From assembly GCA_000165345.1 (NCBI GenBank), contig CM000431.1:128001-192000 (forward strand): a DNA stretch of 64,000 nt, read 5' to 3'. Of this stretch, positions 34,614 to 63,454 are shown piece by piece (within the stretch, counting starts at the first letter, position 1; each line of letters starts with the position of its first letter). Under the pieces are notes generated by a model. That model saw only the letters and a program-made list of their open reading frames with translations, did no database searches and had not been told where the DNA came from. The translations under genes and the position numbers were made by a program.

Positions 34614-36089
34614 TCACTTAATTAAAGAAGTCTTTTTGTTAATAGAGAAGAAGTAGGTAGAGTTGTGGGAGTTCCAACGTTTTGTGTATAATAGTATAAA
34701 TATAGAGAGAATTAAGATGAAGGAATTAATAATAATTGCAATAATAGTTGGAAAGAAGAAGTTATCTTTATAGTTTCTATGAATAAAAGAGTCCCAAAGA
34801 TTGTATACTAAGGTAAAGAATCCTGCAATTGTGGAAGAAATACCTTGAATTGAATTTAAGTGAGTATAACCAAATGCGGAAGTAAAGAGACTGAAGGAAC
34901 ATCCAATAAAGTAGGAATAGCAGAATACACAAATGACAATTCCAAATAAATGTGATAAGAAGCAATACGGAATAAAGTTGGCAAAAAGGACCAAAATTAA
35001 TAGAGAAGATGCAACAAACAAAACCAAAAATAAGTAGATACCCATTAGATCTACAAAGATACCCACTAAAATAGCTGCAATAAATGTAGTTCCAAGCAAA
35101 AGACCAAATATATTTATAATAGATTCAGAGTATTGTAAGTCTCCAGAAGTCTGATCAAGTAGAATTGATTTCATATTGACAGTAAAGTAAAGCCTTACAA
35201 ACCACATTAAAGAGTATATAATAGTAAAAAGAATGGTTGGAATAGAAATAAGCTGCTCTTTGAATGTTAAAGTCCACTGATAAGGAATATCTTCTTTACA
35301 TCTATTAACTTCAACAACCATTTGACTATTAATTAATGAAAGACGCTCCTCATGATCAAATTCAGTAAGAGAGTTCATAATTTGAGATCTGGAAATAGAA
35401 ACTCTTGTACAATAATCAACAGTTGGAGTGACAAAAGGATGTTTAGGAATAATAAAGTAGAATCCAATCATCCAGAGAATTGAAAAGAAACAATTGATAA
35501 TTATAATAAATTGTGTAGGATTAATTCCTAAATAATGGAAATCAATACCTTTAGAAGAAATATAACGAACTAAATTAACCATAATTTGCATATAAGCGAA
35601 ACTCATTCCAACAGAACCTCCCACCATTGCTACAACAAGATGTTTCTTTGAATCATAAAACACAGAAATAGAAGTCTTTGTTAAAGTTAGAAGTTGTGTA
35701 GAAATTCCCCACAAACATATTCCAATATATGGAAAGTAGAACCAAGTTTTATCCAAAAAAAAGCAGAAAATCCATCCCATAATGTGAAATGCTGCTGATA
35801 GAATAGCTGTATTCCTATTATTAAATAAATCCACAAAATAAGCACCCAAAACTCCTGATAATAGAAGTGAAGATGTACCAAGAGAACATAGACTATTCAT
35901 TGTAGTTAGCTTGAAGTCAGGATCTAACCAGTAATAGGCATCGTTATTCATTAATAATTCCTTTACAGCAGATGGCAATAAATATGGTGCTCCCACCATT
36001 GGTGCAGAAACCACATAAAATAATAATAATGTGGTACTGGAAAATCCCGATTTGGTTTGATTCTCACAAGTAAATGGTTTTTCCATCAT
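34614..36089 (-). CDS. Multi-pass membrane transporter, MFS-like. It forms a head-to-head pair with the gene at 36602..38083.
   Basis: 491 aa with about 12 predicted helices. A conserved-looking loop GVLGAYFVDLFNNRNTAIL resembles the MFS/MCT-type G..D.FG.R motif. Its architecture resembles the divergently transcribed neighbour. Confidence 0.5.
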   Translation of the reverse strand: MMEKPFTCENQTKSGFSSTTLLLFYVVSAPMVGAPYLLPSAVKELLMNNDAYYWLDPDFKLTTMNSLCSLGTSSLLLSGVLGAYFVDLFNNRNTAILSAAFHIMGWIFCFFLDKTWFYFPYIGICLWGISTQLLTLTKTSISVFYDSKKHLVVAMVGGSVGMSFAYMQIMVNLVRYISSKGIDFHYLGINPTQFIIIINCFFSILWMIGFYFIIPKHPFVTPTVDYCTRVSISRSQIMNSLTEFDHEERLSLINSQMVVEVNRCKEDIPYQWTLTFKEQLISIPTILFTIIYSLMWFVRLYFTVNMKSILLDQTSGDLQYSESIINIFGLLLGTTFIAAILVGIFVDLMGIYLFLVLFVASSLLILVLFANFIPYCFLSHLFGIVICVFCYSYFIGCSFSLFTSAFGYTHLNSIQGISSTIAGFFTLVYNLWDSFIHRNYKDNFFFPTIIAIIINSFILILSIFILLYTKRWNSHNSTYFFSINKKTSLIK

Positions 36090-36601: not shown

Positions 36602-38083
36602 ATGGCTGGCTCAGAAACGGATAAGCGTAGAGCCTCAGGACGAAGAGGAAGCCTTGAAAGTGGCAGAGGAGATTCTCTTGGGAAAAATTCAAATGAGTCA
36701 AATCCAGGAGTTTTCAGAGAGATGTTCGGAACAAAGGAAAATCCTACAGTTATTCCATTTAAATCCATAATTAAGAATCCAAAGATTTATTTTCCAATTA
36801 TTGCACTTACAGCAACTCTTACAGCAGGTCATATTCAAAATCCAGATGCAACCAGAGAACTATTCTTTAAAAGTGGTGCATTTTCTTTTGCTCCTGAAAT
36901 GCTTGAGTCAGGAGAAGCTTTCTTTACCATCAACAATGTTATGTCCGTTGCTAATGGAGCAGTTTTCATTGGTCATATGATTGCAGGTTCTATAATTGAT
37001 AAATTTGGTTTACTCCCATGTGCATTGGTAGGCCATATTTTGTCTATTTTTGGATATACCTTAATGTTTTTATTACATTTCTCTTCCTATGCATATTATT
37101 TTGCTGGTATATGTTTTGGTATTTCTCTATCATGTACTTTTGCATCCAGATCCAGATTTATGCAGATGTTCCCAAAGGTCAAGAACACTGTTGGAATGCT
37201 TCTCACAATTGGTATGGATTTTTCTCTATTATTCCCCTTACTTCAAGATAAGCTTTCAGAACTCTTTGGTGGTACCAAGATTGTAATGACTAGTATGGTA
37301 ATTATCCAAGCAATAATACTCATTCACCATGCATTTATATTCCCATATGGTAAGCTACCTGATAGAATGGAGTATAAAAACTCTAATAATTCACGTAATC
37401 TTGAAGATGAAACCACTGATCTTATTCAAAAGGATGAAACTGAAGAAATTGAACAAGATGGAATTCAAGGTTACAGAGAACTTTCTTGCATTAGGAAGAT
37501 TTTCTCGCTACCTTTCATTGCCTTCTTTATTTATATGTTATTCTTTGCCTTATCTAGAATTCATTACCAACTCTTCTTCAGAAGTACTTGCTTGATGAAC
37601 ATTAGCGACCAAGTAAGCGCTAAAAAAGCTGCAGATTATGGAAATATTGTATATTCATTAGCATCTTACTTATCTCTTGCTTGGGGTTACATTGTAGATT
37701 ACAATGGACTTATTATTACAATGCAGTACCAAATCGCATTACTTATTGGAGCTTACTTCTGCGCAGGATTCAAGTCTGTGAGCAACATTATCCCTCAAAT
37801 CTTATCCAATGTATTTGCTGGTCTTTATACATGTTTTGCTAATTCTTTAACTTATAGTTTCGTAGCTGGTGTGTTTGGCTACGAAAGCTTTGGTGTTGTA
37901 CAAGGTTTAGCTTCTCTTTCAGCATTTGCTTCACTTATGTCAATCAATTACTGGCAGAACTTCTTGGAGAACGTTTTACAAAGAGATTACAATCTTGCGA
38001 ATAAACTTATCATGTATGCCGCCATTGTAATCCTTGTAATTTTATTCATATTAAGAATGATTTACGTTAGAAAAAGCAAGTAA
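36602..38083 (+). CDS. Multi-pass membrane transporter, MFS-like (probable paralog of 34614..36089).
   Basis: 493 aa with about 12 helices. GSIIDKFGLLPCALVG resembles an MFS/MCT signature. It has a Ser/Arg-rich N-terminal tail and is transcribed divergently from its neighbour off a shared E2F-motif promoter. Confidence 0.5.
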   Translation: MAGSETDKRRASGRRGSLESGRGDSLGKNSNESNPGVFREMFGTKENPTVIPFKSIIKNPKIYFPIIALTATLTAGHIQNPDATRELFFKSGAFSFAPEMLESGEAFFTINNVMSVANGAVFIGHMIAGSIIDKFGLLPCALVGHILSIFGYTLMFLLHFSSYAYYFAGICFGISLSCTFASRSRFMQMFPKVKNTVGMLLTIGMDFSLLFPLLQDKLSELFGGTKIVMTSMVIIQAIILIHHAFIFPYGKLPDRMEYKNSNNSRNLEDETTDLIQKDETEEIEQDGIQGYRELSCIRKIFSLPFIAFFIYMLFFALSRIHYQLFFRSTCLMNISDQVSAKKAADYGNIVYSLASYLSLAWGYIVDYNGLIITMQYQIALLIGAYFCAGFKSVSNIIPQILSNVFAGLYTCFANSLTYSFVAGVFGYESFGVVQGLASLSAFASLMSINYWQNFLENVLQRDYNLANKLIMYAAIVILVILFILRMIYVRKSK

Positions 38084-45487: not shown

Positions 45488-48400
45488 ATGGATGTAATAG
45501 AAGCAGGAGATGTTGTGGAAAAGCCATCTCCAGATGTTTTTCGCTCAAGTAGGCAATTTTTGGACTCTGAGGTGAAGTTAATAGAAGAAATAAAACATAA
45601 TTTTTTGGATACAGTAGGTTATATGGAATTTCGAAAATTTAGCAGAAAACACCAGGGAGTATTTAGAGATGTTGCAAGGGCTTGGACTTTGATTTTGTTA
45701 GTACTTTGTGGATTTTTCTCAAATCTGCTATTTTTTTCTTCATGTCCAAATTTGGGAGATATAGCAGCACATGGGTTGTTTTACAAGGGATATAATTTGA
45801 TAATATTATGCGTTGAAATCGGAATGATAGTGACTACATCATTTTGGCTGCTAATGACTCAGTTCCAGACTGGAGTAGTTTACTCGTTTAGATTGAGCGT
45901 TTTATACACAGCTATTACATTTCTATTATTTATTTTGAGGACAACAATTTCAGATTCAGAAAACTCAACAATTCTACAAAAATGTGACTATATTTTGAGT
46001 AATGGAGAGGTGATCGTTTACAATATAATTCCGCTCATATATATTACGTTACAGTTCTTAATTTCTTTTATTTCATTTTTTTACTCAAAACTGAGACCAA
46101 TCATAGCTGTATATTACTTTAAGCATCCTTGGTTCCTCAAGTCTTGGAAATTTGTAAATATTGAGCCTGTAGAGTTAAAATTACTTTCTTTTGGAAAGAG
46201 GTTTGATGGGAGCAGAAATATTAGTCCAAGAAATACAAGTTCAAAGTATTGTGAAAAAAGCGAGTCAGAGGACAAGACGAGCTCTGAAGGTATGAAAGGA
46301 GGATATTCAAGCGATACAAAAATGTTTTGGGATACGGAAAGTGATAACCAGAATATCAGATTAGCTTCTGGTTATTTCATTGAGATTAAAAGGTTTAGTG
46401 TAAGAAAGCTACTGAAAAAGTTGAATCCGATAAGATTGGATTTGCTTTTAACTTTTAGAACAAGAAAGGATAGAGGTAGAAGACCAAATTCTTTGAAAAA
46501 CCAGGGATGCAGCATAAATAGTTGGTATTTGGGAGAAATTAATGAGGAAGGAAGGCCTCATGGTTTTGGAAGATGGAGGGAGGATGATTACTACGGCGAG
46601 ATTCTCGTTGGGTTTTGGAAGAATGGGCATCCTGTTGGACCATTTAAAACAAGAGAGTGTAGATCAGGGAGTGGCTTTATTTGTTTGAAGCTAGGATTCT
46701 GTCGAACAGAGGCAAATTTGACTCCTAATCTATATGGTTATGCAGATATTGAATGCAGTGTTTCTGGTCAATTCTTTAGAGGGTTTCCTTTATGCCATAT
46801 TTATCCGGCTCCGTCAATAGGAATGAATAGAAGTGGATCAATCTTTGCGAGAATTGGGGCTAAAGGAAAGGCAGCATTAGATGATACAACTCAAAAGGGC
46901 AAGAAAATGGTTGGTGCAGTGTTTAATAGTTCTTGGTTTAAGAAAATAAGGAAAAAGGACAAAGATAAGAAGACCGCATTAGAGAAGAAGGAGAGCATTT
47001 TAGATTCTAAAAAGGTGGTTAGGCTTAATTTAGATAATATTGAAGGTAATAGTGATAAGATGGAGTCAAATGAATTAAATAGTTTATCAATTGATATACC
47101 GTCAGGAAATGAGCAAAATTTAAAGGAAGTAGAACCCAAACTGTCATCAGGGATGTGTAAAAGTGAAATGAATTTAAGCTTACAGAAAAAAGGAGTTCAC
47201 ATGATCCGTAAAGTTAGACAAAAGCTAAGAAGGAACCAAAACAGACAGGACAAGGAGCGTGATTTGTCTCTTCTGTGGGTTTTCCAAAATTTATCCCCAC
47301 ACATTCCGATGTTTACAATCCACCCTAAGAATGAAGTCACTATTTTGGTTGATGCAGAAAGGGGTTTGTATATTGCCGGATACTTTCCAGTATCAGAAGT
47401 ATTACGTTATACAAAACAAACAGGAGCGAGGTTGGCTTTGAGCAACCAGGATCCTGAGAGTTTGCTAAGCGAAAATAACCTAAAGAGTACAATTTTGGGC
47501 CCGAATGATGCCATTAGTGGGCTTATTCCGTTCTCAAGCTCATTTTCGAGCTCCTCCATTATCAAAGCTTCTCAGTATCCTCTAAATAGGCCTCAAGATA
47601 ATAGGTACTTGGAGTCTGTTGAAGTTAGGGTAGTTGATAGATATTGCAATGATTCCGTCTTCTCAAAAGATGCTTTAGATGAAAACCAGGATAATACCGT
47701 ATACTACCCAGAGTTGGAAGTCAAGAATTGGATTCATAGCGATGGACTTCATGCGGCTGAGGCGCTGATATTTATTCATGGGTATAATAACACAATAATG
47801 GATGCTTTAAGGCAAGTTGGACAGATGATTGCTTTTGGAAACTTTCCCTCGTATATAAAACCTATGGTATTTTCTTGGCCATCAGGAAATTCCTTCTTAG
47901 AGTATTTCAAGGCTAGAAAGAGTGCAGAAAGTCCTCACACTCATAATTCACTTTACCAACTCATATTAGGGTTAAAGAATAGAGGAATTCGACATATCCA
48001 CATTATGACTCATTCAATGGGAACTAGATTATTCATCCAGTCGTTCCCTAAGCTTTTATCAGAGAATTTACTTGAAAGATGTGAACAGCATGATCATAGA
48101 TCAAGCATTGATCCTGGAAATTATTTGGGTCTTCGTCATTCTGAGACTCAGTTCGGAGACGAGATTAATCCAATTATTAATGAAAAGGTTCAAATAGTTT
48201 CAATGACTTTCTTGAATCCTGATTATTACTTGGATGACTTTATTAACAAAGCTTTCCCAATGTTAAGGCAATACTGTAATTTAATTACTATGTATGGAGA
48301 TAGCCAAGATGGTGCTCTAAAGTGGAGTGAAATCATTCAGGGTAGGAAAGCTCTCGGCTGCAACGTTTTTGGATTGCATTACGGGACTATTGGGAGCTTT

Positions 48401-49009
48401 AGTAAGAGAATGAAATCTCAAATCAACGATCTTGACCAATATAGAGCTTCTGATGTGGAACTAACCAGTGGCTTGAAGAAGACAGTTTCTACATCAAACA
48501 TGGCCGTCTATGGGGATGAAATCAACTTCTCTTCCAATCAGAAAATAGGAACAACAGGATTAAAATCGGATACGGAAAATCACCCTAATTCTGAGAATAG
48601 AGCTTCACAAGAATCAAAACCAAGAAATGATAGCGCATTATCTCTTATTTACCCTTCTAAGGTCCTAATTAACAGTTTCAACGCCTCTCAAAGTCCCAGG
48701 CAAGGTTCTCCAAGAGCAAGTAGTTCCGGAATTTTGGAGACTTCCAGTCCATATGCAAATAGACATACTCCTGAACAAAGATTCAACTATTTAGATATGG
48801 ATGTAATTGACCAGAGTTTCATTGAACAAAATGTTGGGACAATGCGTCATAATAACTGGAACTTAAACAGAGAAGTCATTGAGGATTTGAGGGAACTGGT
48901 GGTGAGCAGGAAAAGAGCATACCAGAGATCTACCAGGCTAGACAAACGAGAAGGTAATGTTTGGGTCTACAGAATTGCTCCTTCTTGTGTCACTTCCATT
49001 TTCGACTAG
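45488..49009 (+). CDS. Membrane protein with an N-terminal 4-TM block, MORN-like repeats and a C-terminal DUF900-type alpha/beta hydrolase domain.
   Basis: 1173 aa. There are four hydrophobic helices at residues 60-200. GRPHGFGRWREDDYYGEILVGFWKNGHPVGPF is MORN-like. The C-terminal ALIFIHGYNNTIMDALRQVGQMIAFGNFPSYIKPMVFSWPSGNSFLEYF...IRHIHIMTHSMGTRLF matches the PF05990/DUF900 hydrolase pattern (HGYNN...FSWPS...AHSMG, a GxSxG nucleophile elbow). Confidence 0.65.
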   Translation: MDVIEAGDVVEKPSPDVFRSSRQFLDSEVKLIEEIKHNFLDTVGYMEFRKFSRKHQGVFRDVARAWTLILLVLCGFFSNLLFFSSCPNLGDIAAHGLFYKGYNLIILCVEIGMIVTTSFWLLMTQFQTGVVYSFRLSVLYTAITFLLFILRTTISDSENSTILQKCDYILSNGEVIVYNIIPLIYITLQFLISFISFFYSKLRPIIAVYYFKHPWFLKSWKFVNIEPVELKLLSFGKRFDGSRNISPRNTSSKYCEKSESEDKTSSEGMKGGYSSDTKMFWDTESDNQNIRLASGYFIEIKRFSVRKLLKKLNPIRLDLLLTFRTRKDRGRRPNSLKNQGCSINSWYLGEINEEGRPHGFGRWREDDYYGEILVGFWKNGHPVGPFKTRECRSGSGFICLKLGFCRTEANLTPNLYGYADIECSVSGQFFRGFPLCHIYPAPSIGMNRSGSIFARIGAKGKAALDDTTQKGKKMVGAVFNSSWFKKIRKKDKDKKTALEKKESILDSKKVVRLNLDNIEGNSDKMESNELNSLSIDIPSGNEQNLKEVEPKLSSGMCKSEMNLSLQKKGVHMIRKVRQKLRRNQNRQDKERDLSLLWVFQNLSPHIPMFTIHPKNEVTILVDAERGLYIAGYFPVSEVLRYTKQTGARLALSNQDPESLLSENNLKSTILGPNDAISGLIPFSSSFSSSSIIKASQYPLNRPQDNRYLESVEVRVVDRYCNDSVFSKDALDENQDNTVYYPELEVKNWIHSDGLHAAEALIFIHGYNNTIMDALRQVGQMIAFGNFPSYIKPMVFSWPSGNSFLEYFKARKSAESPHTHNSLYQLILGLKNRGIRHIHIMTHSMGTRLFIQSFPKLLSENLLERCEQHDHRSSIDPGNYLGLRHSETQFGDEINPIINEKVQIVSMTFLNPDYYLDDFINKAFPMLRQYCNLITMYGDSQDGALKWSEIIQGRKALGCNVFGLHYGTIGSFSKRMKSQINDLDQYRASDVELTSGLKKTVSTSNMAVYGDEINFSSNQKIGTTGLKSDTENHPNSENRASQESKPRNDSALSLIYPSKVLINSFNASQSPRQGSPRASSSGILETSSPYANRHTPEQRFNYLDMDVIDQSFIEQNVGTMRHNNWNLNREVIEDLRELVVSRKRAYQRSTRLDKREGNVWVYRIAPSCVTSIFD

Positions 49010-49528: not shown

Positions 49529-52500
49529 TTGAGAAAAAGTGAAAAGTGCAGGAAAGAGATAATGAAAGCGTTATTCCTGGCATTTTTAATAATTTTTATA
49601 GGAGGATGGGGTGGGGGAAAGCTGGTTAGAGTGGAATCTTTAAAAACAAGTGCAAAAAGGTATCAAGAAAGAGAAAGGGTTCCATCTCGTTTGCCTCCAC
49701 CAAGAGAAGAACCTCCGGTATTTCAAAGATATTTATATTCCTATCCAAAAGATTATGGTTATTACTTTTTTAATAGAATTAGTGATTCCAATTACTGGGA
49801 TCGTATTAATGGAGAAAATAAGCAAATTCCAATTGAGGGTTGGCAATGGGACAACACATCTAATAATTGGTTATGGGGTCCCTTAAGAAACCAGGATGGT
49901 ACACCATTACTTCCTTTGAGTCCAGAATTAGAAGCTCCAAGAGCTTATGTGGGCCCTACTCGTATTTATGGTCCAATTCAAGTCGATGATTTACCAATTC
50001 CAAGAGTTTTAGATATAATTTGTAAACCTTATGAAAGTTTAATAGGTATTAGAGCATGGTTTCCCAATCCTGAAAGTAAAGGAAGGAAAGATCTACGTGG
50101 GATTCAGTTCTTATGTTCTTCTCCTTTAGATACAAGAGTAAAAGGAGGGTCTAAACATTCAACATGGAGTAGGATTATGGGAAATGTTGGCCCAAATTTG
50201 AAAAAGTACACTGTTTTGACGCGTCCAGAGGATCCTTTTGTCAAAATTAGGGTTTTTGTTGAAACTTTAAACCCAGTAAAGCATCAGTCCCAAAGAGAGT
50301 TAGTTATACCAACCTATCAAGGTCCAAGATTAGTGTATATAGATAATCAAGAAGAAGCATTGGAAAAAGGTCCAATATACCTTATTAGAAGAATAACTTT
50401 GAGAACCAAGAATAATCATCTGAGTTTCTTGGGTAAGGCAGGAGGTAATTTACCTTCAGTTGTAGAGTCTGCTCCAGAAGGATATGAGCTTTCAGGATTC
50501 AGAATCTTGATTTCAGGATATCCAAGAAGTAAATGGAGGGGAGCTGACTTTTCAACTTTGGCATACAGAAACTCCATATCTTTAGGATTTCTCTTCTCAA
50601 AGACTGAGGATATACTGTCTCGTCCTCAAGTTATTTATGGTAGAAGAGGATATGATTTCCAAGATATTAAATGCGATGGGAAGATCACAGGATTACAAGG
50701 ATTTTTTATGGGAAATAGAGGGTTGGTCGGTATTAAAGTTGAATGTGACAGAGTATGGCAGGAAGTTATTTTGGGAATTACAGAAGGAACTGATTATAAG
50801 GCCTTGGTTGGGAGTATGATCAGTGCTGTGACTTTGCATTTATCACCAGAAAAGTTTATCCAAAGTCTGGTGGTATTCTCTACAACAGGTAGACAACAGA
50901 AGTTGGGTGATGATTGGGTTACTCCTACAATAAGATCCTCTAAATCAGAGGGGGGAGGAAGAGGAAAGATTCTACAAGGAATCTTTGCCGAGTTGGACAA
51001 AACTGGAGCTATTTCAGGAATTGGTTTCCATTGGAAGAAGCCTCCAAAGCCGGGTCAGGCTGGGGATAGGGAGGATTATGGTAATTTGGAGGTTTCTGAA
51101 TCTCCCTTGGAAGGAGGAGACACTGGATCACTTGGAAATTCTTCAAAGAAGGAGATTGTTCCAAGAAGCTCCTTCTATGGTAGAGTTGCTAAGGATTGTC
51201 CAATCCTGGAAACCAAATGTCCCACGGGTGTTCCATTGACAGGTCTACGTTTAATTATGAGAAAGGGTGAGACCCAGCCAAAACCCTTTAAAATGTACTT
51301 AGTTTCTTTGTCAATCCAATGTGGAGACGAGTTCTTTAAGCCAGTTGGGAATCCAAATCTAATAGAAGCAGGTAAGAAGAGGACTTATGACATTCTGATT
51401 CATGAAGAGGATCCAGTTGTAGATTTCAGGGTTTATCTTGGTGATCTTGGTCTTCCTCATCTTTTTGATCTTCGTTTCAAACATGATGTATTAAGTAGTT
51501 ATGAATTATATGGATTCAGAGTTGCTATGATGATTAGAAGTGAGAGAATTGGTGCGATTGCTCCTCTTTATAGGGTTGCAACTCCTATTGATTTACCTCC
51601 AATCACTGCAAAAGACATTAGTATTCGTCTATTTGGAGCTGTTAGACCTGAATCTGATCCAGATGTGGTAGTACTTGAAACATCTTGTCCACCTGGAATC
51701 CCTATTACAGCTGTTAGGATGTGGTTTGTAAGGAAGATTGAGGGAAATAATGTTTTCTCTAGGTTAGTTGGTCTTAGAATTCGTTGTGGTTCTAAATGGA
51801 GGAAGACTAAACTTGGAAGTAGTATGGGAGATAGATTTGAAGCTGAAGTGGAATCTGGGGACTTCTTCTCAAGATCCTTTGTTGAGAACCAATCCGAGAA
51901 GCCTTTCTATGTGAGTGGGATAATGCTAGTTACTTTAGAGAATAGAAAGTCATCTTTTGGTGAGACAGGAACAGAAATTATGAAGAAATTGGCATCAGGT
52001 GATGTTGAATCTGAAATATATGGATTTATTGGACAGGAAACACCAGAAGGATTAGTTTCTATTGGGTTCCTTGAGAGAAAAGCAAATTACGATGATTATC
52101 CAACATTTAATGATATTGAAGTGGCTCCATATCAAGTTTCTGCTTCAGATATCCAAGGAGAATCAGAAGGTTCTTTGAATGAGGAAAAGTTAATAGAAAG
52201 CGGAATTGTGAACTTCAGGCCCGGAGAGGAGTGGTTTGGACGTAGAGGATTAGGGGGATCTCATGCAGAAGAGACTTTCTGTGCTCCTGGAAGCAGGTTA
52301 ACTGGTCTTTTGGTACATACTTCAACAAAGATTCCTCATTCGATTATTGGTTTGACTTTAATATGCGATGGCAAGCCATTAAATCCAGTTGGAAGTACTT
52401 TGGGAGATATTGCCAGGTATGAGATTCCAATGAATGAGCCAATAGAAAAGGTTGAAGTTGTATTGAATAAAGAAGATAGATCACTAAGTAGATTAAAACT

Positions 52501-53851
52501 TTTCAATAGAAACCATATGAAAAAGAAGATGGGAAAATTACATGATAGATTCTTGAGTGGATTTGATGTAGAGATTAGAAAAGGAATGATAACAGCTTTA
52601 TCAGCAATATATACTAACTTTGGGGATTCTGGTCCTCCTCCAAAGGTAAGAACAGTACTTGGATCAAATCAAGTAGGGTCAGGTTCAGCCCCAATAACTG
52701 ATAGAAACACTCCATGGGGTCATGCAAATGCAAATGGAGATGTAAGTACTGGAGATGAGTATTCGTGCGAGGAAGGAACAAAACTTACTCAAATAACTAT
52801 GGCTTATAAGAGGAACTCTATAGAACAGAAACAAGAATTAATAGGTTTGAGGATTACTTGTAATGATGAAGATTATGAGCAAGTTGGAATGTGGGATGTT
52901 TCAGATAATAATTATATTCTTGTAGAGGAAACCTTTGGACTGAGGGAAAAAGAGTTTATAATAGCGATAGGAGGAACCAGGATTGATAAGACTCATAGTA
53001 TAGGAAAACTCTATTTTGAGACAAATCTTCTAAGACAGTTTGGGGAATGGCAGCATTATTATGTGGAGGCAAAAACAAGAGGAGATGGGTTGTATGGATT
53101 TGAATTGTTATTTGAGAAGACAGGAGATTATACAACTCCAATAGCAATGCTATTACCATTGTTCAGACCAACTTCAATGGATACAAGGAGTGAAGATTTG
53201 GAAGAGAAGAAATATAAATCTCCATTTGAATTACCAAAAGCAGTAGCAGAGTCATCAGAGGAAGCAAATGAGCAAGAAATGAGAGGAATGTTAAGTTCTC
53301 CAACAATTGTTACAGATTGGATTGGATTGGACATTGGAAGCTTAGAGATGGATGGAATTTGGTGTAAGACTTCAAGGCTAAAGTTGGATGGAAGAATGAC
53401 TTGGGAAGATTGGAGGAACTCAAGAATGACAGGATTGAGAGTATATAATGATGGAGACCACATTAAAGGAATAGCTCTTCAATGTGGGAATTCTTGGTTA
53501 GAGGAGGCAAATCTTGGTCTAGTTGGCCCGAAGTTCCATTTTGATGAAATTAGTGATTGTTTGGAGAGTGATGCTGATTATATAGAGAATATTGAAGTTG
53601 CTATTGATTCTAGAGGTATTCCGGCAGGGTTTAAAGTATTTAGCCACGTTAAGAGGCAGAAGAAAGTTTTAATTAATAATAATTCTATGGTGACTTGGCA
53701 ATCAAATGTTCCAGATTCAGGAAATCACTATGCTTCAGGCATTCATGTTGAATACGACCCTGATACTAATATTATATTCAGAGTTAGAATAGTCTATCGT
53801 CCAATTTCAATTGCAGAAGACCCTGAGGAAAATGTCGGGTTTATATTTTAA
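49529..53851 (+). CDS. Large (1440 aa) secreted protein made of about 8 copies of an unrecognised ~150-aa module marked by a Cys-bracketed hairpin C-x2-G-x2-[IL]-T-G-[LI]-R ... [IL]-x-G-[LI]-x-[IL]-x-C.
   Basis: A signal-peptide-like ALFLAFLIIFIGG follows the internal Met. Repeated segments: CKPYESLIGIRAWF..LRGIQFLC; CDGKITGLQGFF..LVGIKVEC; CPTGVPLTGLRLIM..YLVSLSIQC; CPPGIPITAVRMWF..LVGLRIRC; CAPGSRLTGLLVHT..IIGLTLIC; CEEGTKLTQITMAY..LIGLRITC; CKTSRLKLDGRMTW..IKGIALQC. Cys spacing is 23-36 aa. Confidence 0.6.
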   Translation: MRKSEKCRKEIMKALFLAFLIIFIGGWGGGKLVRVESLKTSAKRYQERERVPSRLPPPREEPPVFQRYLYSYPKDYGYYFFNRISDSNYWDRINGENKQIPIEGWQWDNTSNNWLWGPLRNQDGTPLLPLSPELEAPRAYVGPTRIYGPIQVDDLPIPRVLDIICKPYESLIGIRAWFPNPESKGRKDLRGIQFLCSSPLDTRVKGGSKHSTWSRIMGNVGPNLKKYTVLTRPEDPFVKIRVFVETLNPVKHQSQRELVIPTYQGPRLVYIDNQEEALEKGPIYLIRRITLRTKNNHLSFLGKAGGNLPSVVESAPEGYELSGFRILISGYPRSKWRGADFSTLAYRNSISLGFLFSKTEDILSRPQVIYGRRGYDFQDIKCDGKITGLQGFFMGNRGLVGIKVECDRVWQEVILGITEGTDYKALVGSMISAVTLHLSPEKFIQSLVVFSTTGRQQKLGDDWVTPTIRSSKSEGGGRGKILQGIFAELDKTGAISGIGFHWKKPPKPGQAGDREDYGNLEVSESPLEGGDTGSLGNSSKKEIVPRSSFYGRVAKDCPILETKCPTGVPLTGLRLIMRKGETQPKPFKMYLVSLSIQCGDEFFKPVGNPNLIEAGKKRTYDILIHEEDPVVDFRVYLGDLGLPHLFDLRFKHDVLSSYELYGFRVAMMIRSERIGAIAPLYRVATPIDLPPITAKDISIRLFGAVRPESDPDVVVLETSCPPGIPITAVRMWFVRKIEGNNVFSRLVGLRIRCGSKWRKTKLGSSMGDRFEAEVESGDFFSRSFVENQSEKPFYVSGIMLVTLENRKSSFGETGTEIMKKLASGDVESEIYGFIGQETPEGLVSIGFLERKANYDDYPTFNDIEVAPYQVSASDIQGESEGSLNEEKLIESGIVNFRPGEEWFGRRGLGGSHAEETFCAPGSRLTGLLVHTSTKIPHSIIGLTLICDGKPLNPVGSTLGDIARYEIPMNEPIEKVEVVLNKEDRSLSRLKLFNRNHMKKKMGKLHDRFLSGFDVEIRKGMITALSAIYTNFGDSGPPPKVRTVLGSNQVGSGSAPITDRNTPWGHANANGDVSTGDEYSCEEGTKLTQITMAYKRNSIEQKQELIGLRITCNDEDYEQVGMWDVSDNNYILVEETFGLREKEFIIAIGGTRIDKTHSIGKLYFETNLLRQFGEWQHYYVEAKTRGDGLYGFELLFEKTGDYTTPIAMLLPLFRPTSMDTRSEDLEEKKYKSPFELPKAVAESSEEANEQEMRGMLSSPTIVTDWIGLDIGSLEMDGIWCKTSRLKLDGRMTWEDWRNSRMTGLRVYNDGDHIKGIALQCGNSWLEEANLGLVGPKFHFDEISDCLESDADYIENIEVAIDSRGIPAGFKVFSHVKRQKKVLINNNSMVTWQSNVPDSGNHYASGIHVEYDPDTNIIFRVRIVYRPISIAEDPEENVGFIF

Positions 53852-54377
53852 TAGAGGTTTAGTAATCTTTTGCTAAGGGAGAATGAAAGAAAGAAAGAGG
53901 AGGGAAAATAGAGGTACAAAATTGAGACATGGTGGAATTGAATTGATTTTGTTCTGTATTTTGTACTATGGATGACCAATTTGGTCCAAATAGGTGAATA
54001 CTCTAACTGGCGCGCATTTCCTGCTATTTGCATATATGCATGCATGTATGGACTTGTAAGTACATATTTTCTCTTATCCTTATAATACTTGCTAGTATGG
54101 TTATGTATTATTTATTTTTAAGGTTATATATTTATATTTAATTTTAATTTTGGTTTTATATGTTTTTTTTCCTATTTGCATCATAAATATATGTGAAAAA
54201 GGAGTGCTAATAATATCGTTAGTAGTAGGTAGTAGATAAGGGAGAGGGGGGAGAAATCGGTTTTGACAATTTCATAAGAAAAAAAAAAAAGAAAATCAGG
54301 CCATGCATTAAATACTTGACTTTATTCAGTCAGTAAAGCCTATTGTATGTTCTAGTTTGGTATTTTTTCAAAAAGAG

Positions 54378-54450
54378 CTCCGACGCCGGGAATCGAACCC
54401 GGGTCGCATGGGTGAGAGCCATGTATCCTAGCCGACTAGACTACGTCGGA
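54378..54450 (-). tRNA. tRNA-Glu(CUC): tRNA-Glu (anticodon CUC).
   Basis: Reverse complement: TCCGACGTAGTCTAGTCGGCTAGGATACATGGCTCTCACCCATGCGACCCGGGTTCGATTCCCGGCGTCGGAG. It has a 7-bp acceptor stem, an anticodon stem CATGG/CCATG with loop CTCTCAC (anticodon CTC), and T-arm CCGGG-TTCGATT-CCCGG. It closely resembles the eukaryotic tRNA-Glu-CTC consensus. A T5 run follows the 3' end on the minus strand (Pol III terminator). Confidence 0.9.
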
Positions 54451-54540
54451 ATTCGAGGTACCCATTATTTTAATTAGTATAGTTGAAATATCATGATGTC
54501 TACTTAGGCGGTAAATTTCTGCAAGTTATATAAAAATTTT

Positions 54541-54566
54541 ACTACCTCTAGAGAAAGAGGTAGTAG
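54541..54566. other. Perfect 10-bp inverted repeat (hairpin) TACTACCTCT-agagaa-AGAGGTAGTA, about 90 bp upstream of the tRNA-Glu 5' end.
   Basis: tactacctctagagaaagaggtagta. The arms are exact reverse complements. Confidence 0.5.
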
Positions 54567-55184
54567 GCGGGAAGTACTAAAGGCTTAGAATGACAATATT
54601 AAAATGCTGAATAAAACTTAGCAAATAGGGAAGAAAAAAAGAAGGAAAAAAAAATTGAAAAAAAACATTAAAGAATTTAAATATACAGAATTGACCTTTA
54701 GAGTCAAGACTTAAATATCTCTAGTGGTTGATTAAGAAAATATTGGTATAGACGCTATTACTTGGAATAAATAAAATTAAGGAATATATCTATATGTATC
54801 TACTCGTTTAAATTTAAGAGTTTAGAGCATTATATAGAATTAATTTAAGTTTCATTTTTTTTTTGGTAATAGGCTAACAAAACGATAAAGAGATTATTAT
54901 TAATTTATTTGAAAGAAAAAAAAGTACTTAATACAAAGAAGAAATTTGGATTTTATACTTGAAGGACATTTATTCAAAGTTTTGTTTGGACATTAATTAA
55001 TATTTTAAGATAAGTAGTAATAAGTTTATAATTGATACTGGTTGGATAAATTTATGTAATAATAGAGGAAAGAGAAGGGTATTTAAAGCAAATCAATAGA
55101 GAATATTTTATTTCAGTTTAATATTAATAATAAAAGAAAATTTCCTTTAATTATCAAACAGTGAATAATAAAGTTTAGATATTA

Positions 55185-56276
55185 ATGGAGCAAAATTCAA
55201 TTGTTCCATACCACAATGGAAGGAACTATCCTGAATATGGCCAGTTAACAAATTATTATCCTAATAATACAAATAATAATGGGAATGATTCAAAGTCTGC
55301 TCCATATGAGATTCCGGGATGTCCAGTTTTCAGTGTTTTCATAGCGACAGTTGTTGGTATTTTATGGCTCTTCTTTGCATTAACATTACCAGCATACCAT
55401 TATGCAAGAGTAGTTTTTCCAATAGATAATTATATTGACTTAAATTTCGGATTATGGACAGTACATGTTTCTTCAAACTGCGATTCATTCGTTAGTTTTG
55501 ACGCAAATAAGAAGATGTGTAGATTTATAGTTTCAAGAATGGATAATTTAAGTATTTCAGATGCTACAAACTTTATTTGTAGTCTTGAAGCTGGTACATT
55601 ACAACTTTTAAATCTTGGTTGTAATAAATTCCACTTGTTAAGAATTGGTTCATCAGTTATCATGACAATGTTTATTTTATCAATCATATTACTATTCTTT
55701 GCAGCAATCTTTTTATTAACATTTTGGTTCTGTTATCGTACAAGACGTGTGAGACAAAGTATATTTATGCTTCATTTCATTTCAGCATTAACATGCGTTC
55801 TTGGTATTGTTGGATATCTTCTTGTTGGTGGTCTTACTATACAGCCATTTAGAGATTCTTCAATGTTTGGAATAGGTAGTAGTATGTTTGCAAGACTATT
55901 CTTTGTTGATATTTCAAGAACATTTGATTTGTCAACAGGTTTTGCTTTTGCTGCTTTTGGAATGATTTGGATTGTTTTATTACCTTTATGGTCAGTTTGT
56001 GCATTACCATCAGATATTTGTGTGGATGCTATTGAAGTTATTGAGGATACAACATACGAGGAGGAAGAGTTAAAGAAGCTTTTGGGTTATTCAGGACTTT
56101 TTGGACAAAACTATGGTAATGAACAGTCTGCTGCTAATAACTCTTATTATTATCAGAATAATCAAAACCAGAATTATTATAATCATCAATATCCTCAATA
56201 TTATCAGGGCCAACAGAATCATAATCCATATGGGCAACAATATCCTTATTACAATCAACAATATAGAGGTTATTAG
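55185..56276 (+). CDS. Tetraspan (4-TM) membrane protein with a Cys-containing extracellular loop and a Q/N/Y-rich prion-like C-terminal tail.
   Basis: 363 aa. Helices: VFSVFIATVVGILWLFFAL, VIMTMFILSIILLFFAAIFLLTFWF, FISALTCVLGIVGYLLVGGL, AFAAFGMIWIVLLPLWSV. A loop carries 4 Cys. The tail reads NNSYYYQNNQNQNYYNHQYPQYYQGQQNHNPYGQQYPYYNQQYRGY. Confidence 0.5.
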   Translation: MEQNSIVPYHNGRNYPEYGQLTNYYPNNTNNNGNDSKSAPYEIPGCPVFSVFIATVVGILWLFFALTLPAYHYARVVFPIDNYIDLNFGLWTVHVSSNCDSFVSFDANKKMCRFIVSRMDNLSISDATNFICSLEAGTLQLLNLGCNKFHLLRIGSSVIMTMFILSIILLFFAAIFLLTFWFCYRTRRVRQSIFMLHFISALTCVLGIVGYLLVGGLTIQPFRDSSMFGIGSSMFARLFFVDISRTFDLSTGFAFAAFGMIWIVLLPLWSVCALPSDICVDAIEVIEDTTYEEEELKKLLGYSGLFGQNYGNEQSAANNSYYYQNNQNQNYYNHQYPQYYQGQQNHNPYGQQYPYYNQQYRGY

Positions 56277-56389
56277 TTGCAATTTATTTTAACCAAGTAA
56301 TTTGGACATTAAGGTTTCTATTTTTTCAAGGCAAGGCAATTTCTTTCTTTAAAAAGAGAATGTTGCAGCAAAAATTCCGTCTTTACTAT

Positions 56390-57660
56390 GATTCCTACTA
56401 CTTTATTACCACTACTTTTACTACCACTAATATTACTGTTACTACTACTACTACTANTACTAATANTANTATTATTATTATTATTGGTAATACTANTTTC
56501 AANACTATTACCAATGATAATTCAACAAATAGCNTCAGCTGTTTATAGTATTAATATTANTTCAAANCTTTTAATTCCATTNNCANCCATTTTNATCCAT
56601 TNCATTCTCTCTATTCCCCTCTCAANAAGTGGATTTATGTAATAACTTTAATAAGTTCGTTATATATCGAAANATAAATGTGTATAATCNTTGTACTATT
56701 GTTCGAGCATATTAGCAAGAATTATATTAAACTGGAAGAGAAATAGTAGAAGAAGAAAGTANGNATAGAGAATGAGTTAGAATTTGATAGTATGTCCAAG
56801 ATTTAGTTTATATTTCTATATTATACAANTAAAATCTATGAATTTTACTAGTTATTTTTTCTANGNTTATAGTTATTTTAAAGTTAAAATAAAATCTTTT
56901 ACTTGAAAATTTTAACATATCTCATATATTCTATTTGTTTTATNCACNAGATTTACTTTCTNATGTTATATTACTANTCAATTTTTGAAAATGCGAATAT
57001 TNTATTNGATACATGCGATTTGCATGCATCCACATAAATTCNCGNNATACCGTTTAAAGAAATATGGTAATTACGTGTCAATTTTTCTNTTTGAATAATN
57101 TTAATGGTATTTTTAATAGTATTANTATAANTAGTAGAAATTGTATTAAAAATTAGAAATGTTAGTGTGAATAAAGATATTAATANATTATTATTAGTAG
57201 AAATAAGTGGAAAACAAATAGTACTAAAATTGTAATTATTCNGATTAAAATAGTTTTTTTTTTTANTTTTTTAAATAAATAAAAAAACTTAAGTTAAATA
57301 TTAGATTTAATAATTAAATAAATGGGGTGGATACATATAATTTTANTNTTTCTAATCAATAATTTAATGATTAAGNACATGNAAATAAGTGTAGGTTATT
57401 TATTGATTANATTAAATTNTTTNGATAGTTNTTATNTTCANTTCCTNNNNNNANGNNTCTTTAGTAATTGATTTCCAGAAGAGATTTCCTGAAGTTGGAG
57501 TGTTNCGAAAATCTTGATAATTATGGACTCATAGTNCTNTNNTNNNNANTANTATNATTANNATTATCGNCAATATNNTCANGATTNNCCNNCTGTTNNN
57601 GCTCGNATNACNGTNGGTANAACTATTGNCTTNANNTNCATNTNNNANNNGTATATTTAC
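56390..57660. repeat. Low-complexity TAC/ATT microsatellite region containing many N characters (unresolved or low-quality assembly stretch).
   Basis: (tac)n/(att)n runs such as ctactactactantactaatantantattattattatt. Scattered N positions run from about 56457 to 57660, and dense N runs at 57447-57460 and 57540-57650. Confidence 0.7.
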
Positions 57661-59701
57661 AGTATTAGCAGTATCCTCAACTCCAAGTGAACTAACAGCT
57701 AAAGTTGTGGAAAGTCTTAAAATTTCATTTGGATTATTAGAAGCAGTTTCCAATTTAATATATGCAAATAATGAGATATTACTTTGTACTAGATCAATAT
57801 CAATAATAATTTGATTTTTATTTAAAGGAAATAATTCAATTGGAATTTTAAATTTTGAAATAGTACCTACAAAATCATTACTTTTCTTTTTATTTACTAT
57901 TTTATTTTCTCCAATTAATCCTTCTTGATTATTGAAATATTTTTTTATGTTAGTTTGTATAGTTGTAGTTTTTTTATTATTTACATTAATAGCTTTATTA
58001 ATTCCATCTAAAGTAGCTTCCATAAATAATGGTAATTTATTTGTATTCGTATTATGACTAATATGTGGAGCTATATCATCTAATAATTTATTTACCAAAA
58101 TAATTTCGTCTTCATTTAATATTAGAATATATCTCTGTGTTCCATCTTCACTTGATGTTATATTATACATGATAAGATAATTATCTAAATCAAAAGAAAT
58201 TTGTTCTTGTTTTGTTGTGTTAATACTTTCAAGTTTTTGATTATTATAATGGTCATCAATTAAAATATGATGACGTTTTTTATGTGGATTTTTTGTATTG
58301 ATTCCAGTATTATTTACTGAATTTATTTTCATTTGATCTTGATTGGATTGTTCTTCTATTTCATTTTGATTATTTTTTATGATCGTAGAGTTGTTTGAAT
58401 CATTAGTAGTATTTGAAAGAATAGTATTATTAAAGTTATCAAATTGTGTAGAATTTTCTGTAATATTTGTTATAAAGTTTGATTCTTTGAAATATTCCTC
58501 AGTATTATTGTTTAAAGATAAGGCATCTTTTGTTTGATTGGTTACTTTTTCCTGTAAATCTTTGATTTGAAGAAATTCTGAATTTGTTTGAGTATTTTTG
58601 TCCAAGGGTATTCCTCCATTGATCAAATTTCCAATATTTGCAGGAATGGTCGTATTTGCGGTAAAGTTACCAGTTGAAGAGCTTGAATCTTTGATTTCAA
58701 TTTTTTCTTCTTGTTTGTCCTTATTTTCTTTTTTCTCACCCTCCTTTTCTTTCTCACCCTTTTCTTTTCTTTTCATCCTCTTTTTCGGTCTTCTTCTTTT
58801 CTTCTACCTTTTCGTCCATCTCTTTTTTATCCTTTTCTTCCTCCGTTTTCTTTTCGTACTTCTTTTCATTCTCTGCCATCTTTTTATCCTCCACCTTCTT
58901 TTCGTCCTTTTCATTCTCTGTCTTCTTTTCATCTTTCTTTTCATTCTCTGTCTTCTTTTCTTCATCCGTTTTCTTTTCTTCCTCCGTTTTCTTTTCGTCC
59001 TTTTCATTCTCTGCCATCTTTTCATCCTCCACCTTCTTTTCGTCCTTTTCATTATCTGTCTTCTTTTCTTCATCCGTTTTCTTTTCGTCCTTTTCATTCT
59101 CTGCCATCTTTTCATCCTCCACCTTCTTTTTGTACTTTTCATTCTCTGTCTTCTTTCCTTCCTCTACCTTCTTTTTTCTCTCCTTTTCTTCCTCCATTTT
59201 CTTTTCGTCCTTCTCCTTTTCGTCCTTCTTTTCATTCTCTGTCTTCTTTTCATCATCTGTCTTCTTTTCGCTCTTCTCTTTCTCCTTCCCTTGTATTGGG
59301 TTGTATATCTCACTATGTAAATCTATATTTGCAGAATTTTTGATTTCATTTCTCTGATTATTTCTCAGTGATAGTTTTGCCTTAGAAATTGAGGAAGACT
59401 CAGAAATTTGTGTAGAATTATCGTTACTAATCAATGAAAATTCTGTCTTAATATTTAAAACTACTCCCTGTTGTATATTGCTTTTCAACTTTAATATTCT
59501 TCCACTGCATGATTCTCCTATTGTATTAATTTCACAAACTTGATCATTATTTTGCTTTTGAGAATTTTCAATCTCAGCTATTTGATCTTCTGCTAAAATC
59601 TCATAATTCTCCAATCTAACGCTTTCTGATAACCAAACAAAGCTAAATATTACTAAAATAGGAAGAAATAATCTTCCAAACTTAATTATATGCATTTTCA
59701 T
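57529..59701 (-). CDS. Secreted protein with a signal peptide, KE-rich 15-aa tandem repeats and an N/T/S-rich C-terminal region. It is split by an apparent frameshift near 58754-58776, and its 3' end runs into the N-containing gap.
   Basis: Track ORFs 58754..59701(-) and 57529..58776(-) are adjacent, overlap by 23 nt in different frames and share composition (..KKTEKEDEKKRKG* / MKRKEKGEKEKEGEKKENKDK..). The N-terminal MKMHIIKFGRLFLPILVIFSFVWLSESV is a signal peptide. The shift lies in gaaaagaaaagaaaaggg. The downstream ORF ends inside the N-rich region, so the true 3' end is unknown. Confidence 0.5.
58740..59285. repeat. Coding tandem repeat with a 45-bp unit in two alternating variants (90-bp super-unit), encoding EKKVEDEKMAENEKD / EKKTDEEKKTDNEKD on the minus strand.
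   Basis: Repeated ...cgtccttttcattctctgccatcttttcatcctccaccttctttt / cgtccttttcattatctgtcttcttttcttcatccgttttctttt... The plus-strand ORFs 58598..59320, 58711..59343 and 59130..59357, and the minus ORF 58804..59142, are alternate-frame artefacts of this repeat. Confidence 0.75.
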
Positions 59702-61396: not shown

Positions 61397-63454
61397 ATGG
61401 AAGAGAAAATCGACAGGAAAGATTTTTTCTCAGTAGAGCTTGAAAATGGACAAGTAGAACCTGAATCATCTCCAATATATAGAAATCCTAGTTATTCTAA
61501 AGGTGAATTATCAAATTTACAAGGTTTAAATGCAAACAATTTATGGGAACTATTTGTAAATTCTGTAAATAAATATAAGAATAAAAAATGTCTTGGAACA
61601 AGAAAACTAAATAGAGATGGAACTTATGGAGAATATGTATTTAAAAGCTATGAAGAATTGAAAGAAGAGGCTTTAAATATTGGTATTAATATTTTAAAGA
61701 TGGATTTATGCCCAATAAGAAAATATGAAGATAATGAATATCAAAAAGAAATTAGTATGATGGGTATATTGAGTAGAAATAGAGAAGAATGGTATTTAAC
61801 AGAACATGCATGTAATGCATTTGGAATTTGTTTAGCTCCTTTATATGATACTTTGGGAGAAGATAATTTAAAATTTATACTGGTGCAAACACAATTAAAA
61901 AGTCTATGTATTTCAAATGATAGTTTAGAAAAGATTATATCAATTATTGAAAGATCTATAATTGATTCAACCAGAGATTCAATATTAATAAAAAATTTGA
62001 TATGCTTTGATCATCCAACAACAGAAATTAATCAGAGAGCTAAGAATTTAGATATTAATTTGATTTTATTCAAGAATTTACAAGAAAAAGTCAGTAAGAA
62101 AGATAAAGAAATATACAAACCCAAAAAAATTAAACCAGATGATATGTGTTCAATACATTTTACATCGGGAACTACTGGATATCCAAAAGGAGCAATATTA
62201 ACACATCGTTGTTTTTTAGCATGCGTAAAAAGTTCATATGAACATTTATTTTCAGAGAAAGAAATACAATTAGATAATGAAGATGCACATTTATCTTATC
62301 TTCCAATGGCACATATATTTGAAAGATTAATTGTAATGAATGCTTATTATTTGGGAATACCAATTGGTATATTTAGTGGTAGTGTAACAAGATTAATGAG
62401 TGATTCACAAGAATTAAAACCAACAATATTAGTTTGTGTACCACAAGTCTTAACAAGAATTATTCAAACAGTTAATGATAAAATTAGTCAATCAAACTTT
62501 TTAGTAAGAACAGTATTTCATAAAGCATTGAAACAAAAAGAAAGTATTATTAAAACAAAAGGAGATCCAACACATTGGTTATGGGATAGAATTATTTTTA
62601 GTAATACAAGACAGATATTAGGTGGAAAATTGAAAGCTATAATAAGTGGAGCAGCACCATTAGGTTTAGAAGTAAATCATAAAATACAAGCAATTTTTTG
62701 TTGTAAATTAATTGAAGGATTTGGTATGTCAGAATGTATTGGTACTTTAGGTACAAGATATTCATATGCACATTTAGGTACTGTTGGTGGTCCATTTAGT
62801 GATGTAGAAGTCAAATTAACATCAGTATTAGAAATGGGGTATGATTCAACAAAAGAACCAAGAAGAGGATTATTAAAGATAAGAGGTAACAGTGTATGTA
62901 AAGGTTACTTTAGGGATATAATCAATAGTAAAGAATTGATTGATAGTAATGGTTGGTTAGATACTGGTGATATAGCAGAAAGACAACAAGATGGCTCATT
63001 TAAGATTATTGATAGAAAGAAATCATTATTTAAATTGTCTCAAGGTGAATATATTTCACCAGAAAGAATTGAGGGAATATATTTATCATCATCATCATTA
63101 ATTCAACATGTATATGTATATGGTCAATCAACTGATAGATTTTTAGTAGCTTTAATATTCCCAAATGAGCAAGCATTAAGAAAATGGTCGGAAGATAAAG
63201 GAATGAATACTTTATCATTATCTTTGGAAGAATTATGTGAATCTCATGAATTATTTGATGAATTGAATGATTCTTTTCATAAAGCTGAATTAAGTTCAAA
63301 TTTATTTGGTTTTGAGAGAATACATAAATTTAAAGTAATTCCTGAGGTTTTAAGTACTTCAAATGGATTATTAACACCAACTATGAAGATTGTGAGAAAT
63401 AAAGTCAATTCAAAGTATAAGGAAGTTTTGAATACTTTAAGATCACAAATTTGA
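61397..63454 (+). CDS. Long-chain fatty acyl-CoA synthetase (AMP-binding superfamily).
   Basis: AMP-binding motif I HFTSGTTGYPKGAILTHR, motif II EGFGMSECIG and motif III DTGDIAERQQDGSFKIIDRKK. The 685-aa length is typical of eukaryotic LACS. Confidence 0.9.
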   Translation: MEEKIDRKDFFSVELENGQVEPESSPIYRNPSYSKGELSNLQGLNANNLWELFVNSVNKYKNKKCLGTRKLNRDGTYGEYVFKSYEELKEEALNIGINILKMDLCPIRKYEDNEYQKEISMMGILSRNREEWYLTEHACNAFGICLAPLYDTLGEDNLKFILVQTQLKSLCISNDSLEKIISIIERSIIDSTRDSILIKNLICFDHPTTEINQRAKNLDINLILFKNLQEKVSKKDKEIYKPKKIKPDDMCSIHFTSGTTGYPKGAILTHRCFLACVKSSYEHLFSEKEIQLDNEDAHLSYLPMAHIFERLIVMNAYYLGIPIGIFSGSVTRLMSDSQELKPTILVCVPQVLTRIIQTVNDKISQSNFLVRTVFHKALKQKESIIKTKGDPTHWLWDRIIFSNTRQILGGKLKAIISGAAPLGLEVNHKIQAIFCCKLIEGFGMSECIGTLGTRYSYAHLGTVGGPFSDVEVKLTSVLEMGYDSTKEPRRGLLKIRGNSVCKGYFRDIINSKELIDSNGWLDTGDIAERQQDGSFKIIDRKKSLFKLSQGEYISPERIEGIYLSSSSLIQHVYVYGQSTDRFLVALIFPNEQALRKWSEDKGMNTLSLSLEELCESHELFDELNDSFHKAELSSNLFGFERIHKFKVIPEVLSTSNGLLTPTMKIVRNKVNSKYKEVLNTLRSQI

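Follow-up and report, generated by a model that had tools for sequence, protein, structure and literature searches.

The stretch of DNA analysed here (referred to as the window) comprises 64,000 nucleotides of NCBI GenBank assembly GCA_000165345.1 (contig CM000431.1, positions 128,001 to 192,000 of the forward strand), has a G+C content of about 30-38% and is densely packed with long open reading frames (ORFs). One of these, at 49529..53851 on the + strand, encodes a large secreted protein of Cryptosporidium parvum in which seven divergent domains, almost certainly of the jacalin-like beta-prism I type, stand in tandem. The frame is open without interruption and gives 1440 amino acids (aa) when counted from an upstream TTG, the length given in the first-pass annotation, a reading of the letters made without database searches. 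The frame itself is real, but the annotated protein begins at the ATG at 49562 (MKALFLAFLIIFIGG..., MKALFLAF...), giving a single-exon coding sequence (49562..53851, +) of 1429 aa plus a stop. This product is 100% identical to EAK89201.1/Q5CV19 of C. parvum Iowa II, where it is annotated as 'hypothetical protein'. As both quantitative PCR (qPCR) primers for cgd3_600 listed in the table of Mauzy et al. (2012; PMC3305300) match the ORF exactly, at 52123-52144 (+) and 52224-52245 (-), and the primers of the genes from cgd3_560 to cgd3_640 follow gene order across the window, the ORF can be assigned to cgd3_600, sited at ~179-185 kb on the 1.1-Mb chromosome. The position of CpACS1 and a locus tag in C. 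meleagridis had pointed to cgd3_610, but the primer tables put that name at the downstream gene with four transmembrane (TM) segments, and the assignment was rejected. Two 2025 papers (PMC12407990, PMC12688253) equate cgd3_600 with DG1, a validated dense-granule marker, and it is very probable that the ORF is this gene and its product this protein.

With residue numbering starting at MKALF, the protein opens with a predicted signal peptide of about aa 1-19 (49562..49618, +; cleavage site approximate), the only place at which the Kyte-Doolittle window exceeds 1.6; over the whole protein the hydropathy profile shows no TM or glycosylphosphatidylinositol (GPI)-like tail at the C terminus. It is followed by a Trp/Tyr-rich region of 110 aa (aa 20-129; 49619..49948, +) which is not a module, showing no significant hhalign match to any of them, and whose identity across species (34-76%) indicates a conservation below that of the modules. 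The seven modules, all on the + strand, are module 1 (aa 130-350; 49949..50611; Cys154/Cys185), predicted to be a beta-prism I domain with two inserted loops, module 2 (aa 352-495; 50615..51046; Cys371/Cys395), module 3 (aa 533-675; 51158..51586; Cys553/Cys587), module 4 (aa 686-841; 51617..52084; Cys709/Cys742), module 5 (aa 886-1022; 52217..52627; Cys907/Cys935), module 6 (aa 1047-1205; 52700..53176; Cys1069/Cys1100) and module 7 (aa 1248-1418; 53303..53815; Cys1268/Cys1308), the last with a 15-aa insert within its hairpin. An acidic, Gly/Ser-rich linker joins modules 2 and 3 (51047..51157, +) and further linkers of similar kind lie at 52085-52216, 52628-52699 and 53177-53302 (+), three of the four being acidic with an isoelectric point (pI) of 4.0-4.5. 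The array is polar in charge, with modules 1-3 and 5 basic (pI 9.0-9.7) as against the acidic modules 6-7 (pI 4.7-5.3) and linkers.

The protein has 16 cysteines, of which 14 form seven pairs, and all 14 are invariant in seven Cryptosporidium species ranging from C. parvum to C. muris (60% identity). A fifteenth, Cys546 in module 3 (51197-51199), is likewise invariant in all seven species and has no partner in the module pattern; it could be free or engaged in an intermolecular disulfide.

Comparison of the cgd3_600 protein with itself by BLASTP gave no off-diagonal match, which means that the copies are very divergent (about 12-28% identity). The seven-species alignment was therefore cut into segments and the modules compared by hhalign in local mode, which linked modules 3 and 4 (E 1.8e-7), 5 and 6 (8e-6) and 4 and 6 (2.8e-5), with other links at 1e-3 to 5e-3, among them module 2 to modules 4, 6 and 7 (2-4e-3) and module 7 to modules 2 and 4 (3e-3). 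The alignments are in register and near full length, and the network of modules is connected. In a leave-one-out series, in which a hidden Markov model (HMM) built from six modules was used to find the seventh, all were recovered at E 1e-11 to 4e-3 in a proteome-sized search, with values of 1.1e-11 for module 4, 1.3e-7 for module 5, 7e-4 for module 7 and 3.9e-3 for module 2. Aligned by MAFFT, 28 module sequences share five invariant columns, namely the Gly of a leading [YFW]-G, both cysteines and two more Gly. When 1.84 billion representative proteins were scanned exhaustively in HMMER with the 28-sequence profile, the C. ubiquitum orthologue gave seven matching stretches and no more. The hairpin, written as a regular expression, occurs six times in the protein and not once in 2000 shuffles. 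The repeat is real and has seven copies. The first-pass annotation had described about eight copies of a module with cysteines 23-36 residues apart; the repeat, the conserved pair and all of the example peptides it quoted are there, but the copies number seven and the spacing runs from 24 to 40 residues.

The first lead to the identity of the module was a weak phmmer match, in a whole-protein search of PDB sequences, between residues 748-848, in module 4, and human ZG16B (3aqg; E 0.013). A profile of module 4 from four orthologous sequences gave ZG16B at 0.006, while the same kind of profile for the other single modules was uninformative against PDB and pooling of the modules was needed. The all-module profile, run against every PDB sequence, finds ZG16B at E 3.6e-5, WGA16 from boar at 0.02 and ZG16p at 0.1, and apart from these only one low-complexity match. 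In Pfam, where the gathering cut-off of the Jacalin family (PF01419) is 22 bits, the module 6 orthologues of C. felis (30.6 bits), C. bovis (35.8 bits) and C. muris (22.4 bits) pass, and module 6 of the window, the copy nearest to a canonical jacalin, reaches 21.3 bits over positions 9-122 of the 136 in the profile (E 3.8e-4). Modules 1-5 and 7 have no direct Pfam match and are tied in through the module-module profiles. A match of the whole protein to PH_3 (13.6 bits) is below threshold and was judged spurious.

The hairpin motif of the modules, C-x2-G-x2-[IL]-T-G-[LI]-R ... [IL]-x-G-[LI]-x-[IL]-x-C, corresponds column by column to 'PITALRVRV..IVGLQVRYG' of ZG16p (PITALRVRVNTYYIVGLQVRYGKVW) and likewise to 'TGITGIRVF..IKSIQVRYG' of WGA16 (second half IKSIQVRYGSSW), and therefore represents the beta2-beta3 hairpin of the jacalin-like fold. 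Relative to these proteins the module has one Cys added ahead of the hairpin and a second in place of the Tyr of '...RYG'. As would be expected of a protein that folds in the secretory pathway, the Cys pair of each module most likely forms a disulfide that staples the base of the hairpin, a suggestion drawn from the sequence. Within the jacalin-like fold the modules belong with the ZG16 subfamily, whose members are their nearest relatives in both sequence and structure and share the hairpin signature ITxLRV...IVGLQVRYG..W.

Structure prediction agrees with the profiles. AlphaFold2 returned a confident all-beta model of module 3, the first of the copies cited in the first-pass annotation, with a predicted local distance difference test score (pLDDT) of 88.2 and a predicted template modelling score (pTM) of 0.83. 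In this model the three four-stranded Greek-key sheets around a pseudo-threefold axis that define a beta-prism I are predicted, and nearly all of the top 50 PDB matches in Foldseek are jacalin-related lectins. That the modules are beta-prism I domains of the jacalin-like (ZG16/WGA16-like) family is thus close to certain. The first-pass annotation was right that the module is rich in beta strands; its further proposal, that of an unrecognised fold unlike jacalin, does not survive, as module 6 maps to PF01419 above the cut-off in three orthologues and both profile and predicted structure lead to ZG16 and WGA16. The probability left for a new, undescribed beta-rich fold is next to nil. The blank self-BLAST, the whole protein without a Pfam match and the single-module profiles which found nothing useful in PDB would all agree with such a fold, but the Pfam matches of the orthologues and the Foldseek matches refute it. 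A place in the VMO-I (VOMI)/dermatopontin-type branch of beta-prisms, instead of the jacalin branch, is also highly improbable for the modules. That branch is marked by Cys-bracketed hairpins, as the modules are, yet its members have three of these per prism (one per Greek key) where DG1 has one, and no module matches Pfam VOMI (PF03762) or DERM.

In jacalin lectins, a GxxxD motif in the beta11-beta12 loop supplies the Asp that holds the sugar hydroxyls. Two canonical proteins aligned here, P0030 and P0028 (a Phytophthora protein with four Jacalin domains), carry it in their last loop as G-x-x-[IL]-D-x-[LI]-G; a small home-made jacalin HMM from these two, with a best E of 1e-3, lacked the power to class the modules and served only to locate the Asp column. 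No GxxxD is present at this position in any of the seven modules or in the orthologues of the species examined, and in the one explicit alignment, that of module 4, Val stands in the Asp column. ZG16B and WGA16 similarly have a short last loop without Asp. The loss concerns lectin activity and not membership of the fold. With no such Asp in any of the seven modules, recognition of mannose or galactose in the classical way is improbable, and the sequences suggest that the canonical site is probably not the mode of binding and that some other surface is more likely.

Conservation is concentrated in the modules, where C. parvum and C. muris share 56-71% identity, compared with 18-54% in the linkers. 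The ratio of nonsynonymous to synonymous substitution rates (dN/dS, Nei-Gojobori) is 0.080 against C. tyzzeri (synonymous rate, dS, 0.05) and 0.082 against C. ubiquitum (dS 0.95), with 0.03-0.07 for the modules and 0.33 for the linkers. The gene is under strong purifying selection, and the low ratio marks its product as a conserved structural or functional protein and not a fast-evolving antigen. Outside Cryptosporidium, only 25 of the representative proteins scanned match the module profile at E<=1e-3, all weakly, their sources being metagenomes, a green alga and, for a jacalin protein, an oomycete. As the matches are so few and weak, the seven-module architecture appears from the sequences to be genus-specific. 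Three proteins, P0016, P0017 and P0022 (from metagenomes and Micractinium tetrahymenae), consist almost wholly of CPxGxxxTG...C hairpins in repeated form, and their Pfam matches to Dermatopontin, VOMI and Jacalin are weak. This suggests that Cys-bracketed beta-prism repeat proteins form a wider group that is poorly annotated.

DG1 is reported to be concentrated in a defined ring at the interface of host and parasite (PMC13241007), and cgd3_600 peptides have been detected in infected cells, where the pull-down table labels the product 'Uncharacterized protein'. By qPCR its transcript levels are low, almost none at 2-6 h, and peak at 36-48 h. The predicted signal peptide, as the only hydrophobic stretch, and the lack of a membrane anchor are consistent with storage in dense granules and secretion, and together with the published location bear out the earlier description of a large secreted parasite protein. 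Reviews of 2025-26 list the function of DG1-DG6 as not known, among them one of 2026 that says this of their molecular functions (PMC13007382). In a literature search no paper linked Cryptosporidium DG1 with a jacalin-like fold, and Cryptosporidium together with jacalin yielded only reagent uses; the UniProt and GenBank identifiers of the protein did not occur in the text of any paper.

ZG16p and WGA16 bind acidic glycans or glycosaminoglycans, and the packaging role proposed for ZG16p is to connect aggregated zymogens with the matrix of the granule. The organisation proposed for DG1 is a signal peptide and the 110-aa Trp/Tyr-rich region followed by seven tandem beta-prism I domains, which short, flexible, fast-evolving and mostly acidic linkers would hold as 'beads on a string'. 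Stored in dense granules and secreted to the ring at the interface, such a protein may act as a multivalent binder or cross-linker that helps to build or anchor the ring. The binding surface would be a non-canonical one; modules 1-3 and 5, for example, have basic faces which could recognise acidic glycans, glycosaminoglycans or mucins, and binding to protein partners is the alternative. As a whole, a secreted heptavalent string of beta-prism domains that cross-links at the interface is the best explanation of the data and somewhat favoured by them; for the cross-linking mechanism taken by itself the chances are a little short of even. More tentatively, no jacalin-like (beta-prism I) protein may have been assigned to a secretory organelle of an apicomplexan before DG1, which would be genus-specific, disulfide-stapled and heptavalent with all canonical sugar sites lost, and in which basic modules 1-3 and 5 would engage acidic host glycans, glycosaminoglycans or parasite mucins in assembling or anchoring the interface ring; taken in full, this is a possible reading and not a probable one.

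Two other functions have to be set against the proposed cross-linker. DG1 might condense or sort dense-granule cargo inside the parasite in the manner of ZG16p, with its presence at the interface a by-product of release. This is the main functional rival, and the fact that the nearest solved relatives are secretory-granule proteins of the ZG16 family speaks for it, as do the lost sugar-binding Asp and the charge dipole of the array, which could drive self-association or co-aggregation. Nevertheless it is unlikely, as DG1 is reported to lie in a defined ring and not to be diffuse (PMC13241007), and the likeness to ZG16p is so remote that a common function cannot be assumed. That DG1 is a jacalin-type lectin of the classical kind, specific for mannose or galactose and with all seven sugar sites active, is highly improbable, since each of the canonical domains aligned has the GxxxD loop that DG1 lacks throughout; the fold and the Gly-rich first strand ([YFW]-G-x-x-G) kept in several modules would speak for it.

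A number of points weigh against the interpretation preferred here, that of DG1 as a heptavalent beta-prism cross-linker. The whole window protein has no match above threshold in Pfam, and its best module falls 0.7 bits under the Jacalin cut-off. The E-values of modules 2 and 7 are modest, and structure models cover two of the seven modules, the other five resting on sequence profiles. The disulfide is deduced from the sequence. The missing Asp argues against lectin activity, and the multivalent binder follows from architecture and location alone. The equation of DG1 with cgd3_600 comes from two secondary sources, and the qPCR peak fits synthesis in maturing meronts without being specific to it.

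Of the known systems, the ZG16 family (ZG16p, ZG16B/PAUF and boar WGA16; PDB 3apa/7o3i, 3aqg and 3wob/3woc) is the closest. Its beta2-beta3 hairpin aligns with DG1 residue by residue, ZG16B and WGA16 have the same short last loop lacking GxxxD, and its members, like DG1, are cargo of secretory granules. However, the ZG16 proteins are single-domain and about 16 kDa in size, whereas DG1 has seven domains and about 159 kDa, shares only 12-18% identity with them, has the added conserved Cys pair with the second Cys where they have Tyr, and carries large inserts in modules 1 and 7. Nothing points to a recent transfer from the host. The jacalin-related lectins of plants, tandem forms among them (the three-domain Parkia platycephala lectin 1zgr; Heltuba 1c3k; banana lectin; Calsepa; PF01419), keep both the GG loop and the GxxxD Asp that the DG1 modules are without, and are cytosolic or vacuolar with no disulfide, in contrast to the secreted and presumably Cys-stapled DG1. 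The beta-prism proteins of bacteria (Vibrio cholerae RbmC, Bap1 and cytolysin domains) are remote in sequence, occur in other domain contexts and bind N-glycans at the canonical site.

Cryptosporidium is a leading cause of childhood diarrhoea, and most of the secreted proteins which make up its unusual interface with the host have no assigned function. The location of DG1 was known already; what is added here is its membership of the jacalin/ZG16 beta-prisms as a divergent, Cys-stapled, Asp-less and seven-fold tandem form. As seven ZG16/jacalin-type domains, a 'hypothetical protein' gains testable hypotheses, namely multivalent binding of glycans, glycosaminoglycans or partners and disulfide-dependent folding, and the module boundaries are clear enough for recombinant expression. 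It represents neither a new fold nor a new principle, and structure prediction would probably lead anyone to the same assignment.

Upstream in the window, a 2285-aa ORF (27559-34416, +) has no Pfam match at E<=1e-4. It is followed by a divergent pair of ORFs of ~490 aa each (34614-36089, - and 36602-38083, +), whose matches to MFS_1 (25 and 32 bits) are below the cut-off of 33.4 and which may be duplicated transporters. The upstream neighbour of cgd3_600 is cgd3_590 (45488-49009, +), whose 1173-aa product is hydrophobic in its N-terminal half and contains a DUF900 alpha/beta-hydrolase domain (80.9 bits) in the C-terminal one.

Downstream lies cgd3_610 (55185-56276, +), encoding 363 aa with some four hydrophobic segments and a C-terminal tail rich in Gln, Asn and Tyr. 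The primers for cgd3_620 found no match in the window, possibly because of ambiguous bases at ~57530-57650, where the translation of the ORF at 57529-58776 (-) ends in a run of X. The gene cgd3_630 (58754-59701, -) codes for a signal peptide and then a long Lys/Glu-rich repeat (EKKTENEKKDEKK...), in a region with an AT skew of -0.36 and 19-28% G+C; the + strand ORFs which overlap it at 58598-59343 are probably artefacts of the repeat. Three neighbouring genes with signal peptides, cgd3_600, cgd3_620 and cgd3_630 (49562-59701), share expression cluster 120 of Oberstaller et al. (2013; PMC3734150) and may form a small block of co-expressed secreted proteins. Towards the end of the window, a 685-aa AMP-binding enzyme (61397-63454, +; Pfam AMP-binding, 184 bits) is identified as CpACS1 (cgd3_640), as the forward cgd3_640 primer maps there; this fatty acyl-CoA synthetase has been discussed as a drug target (PMC8717973).

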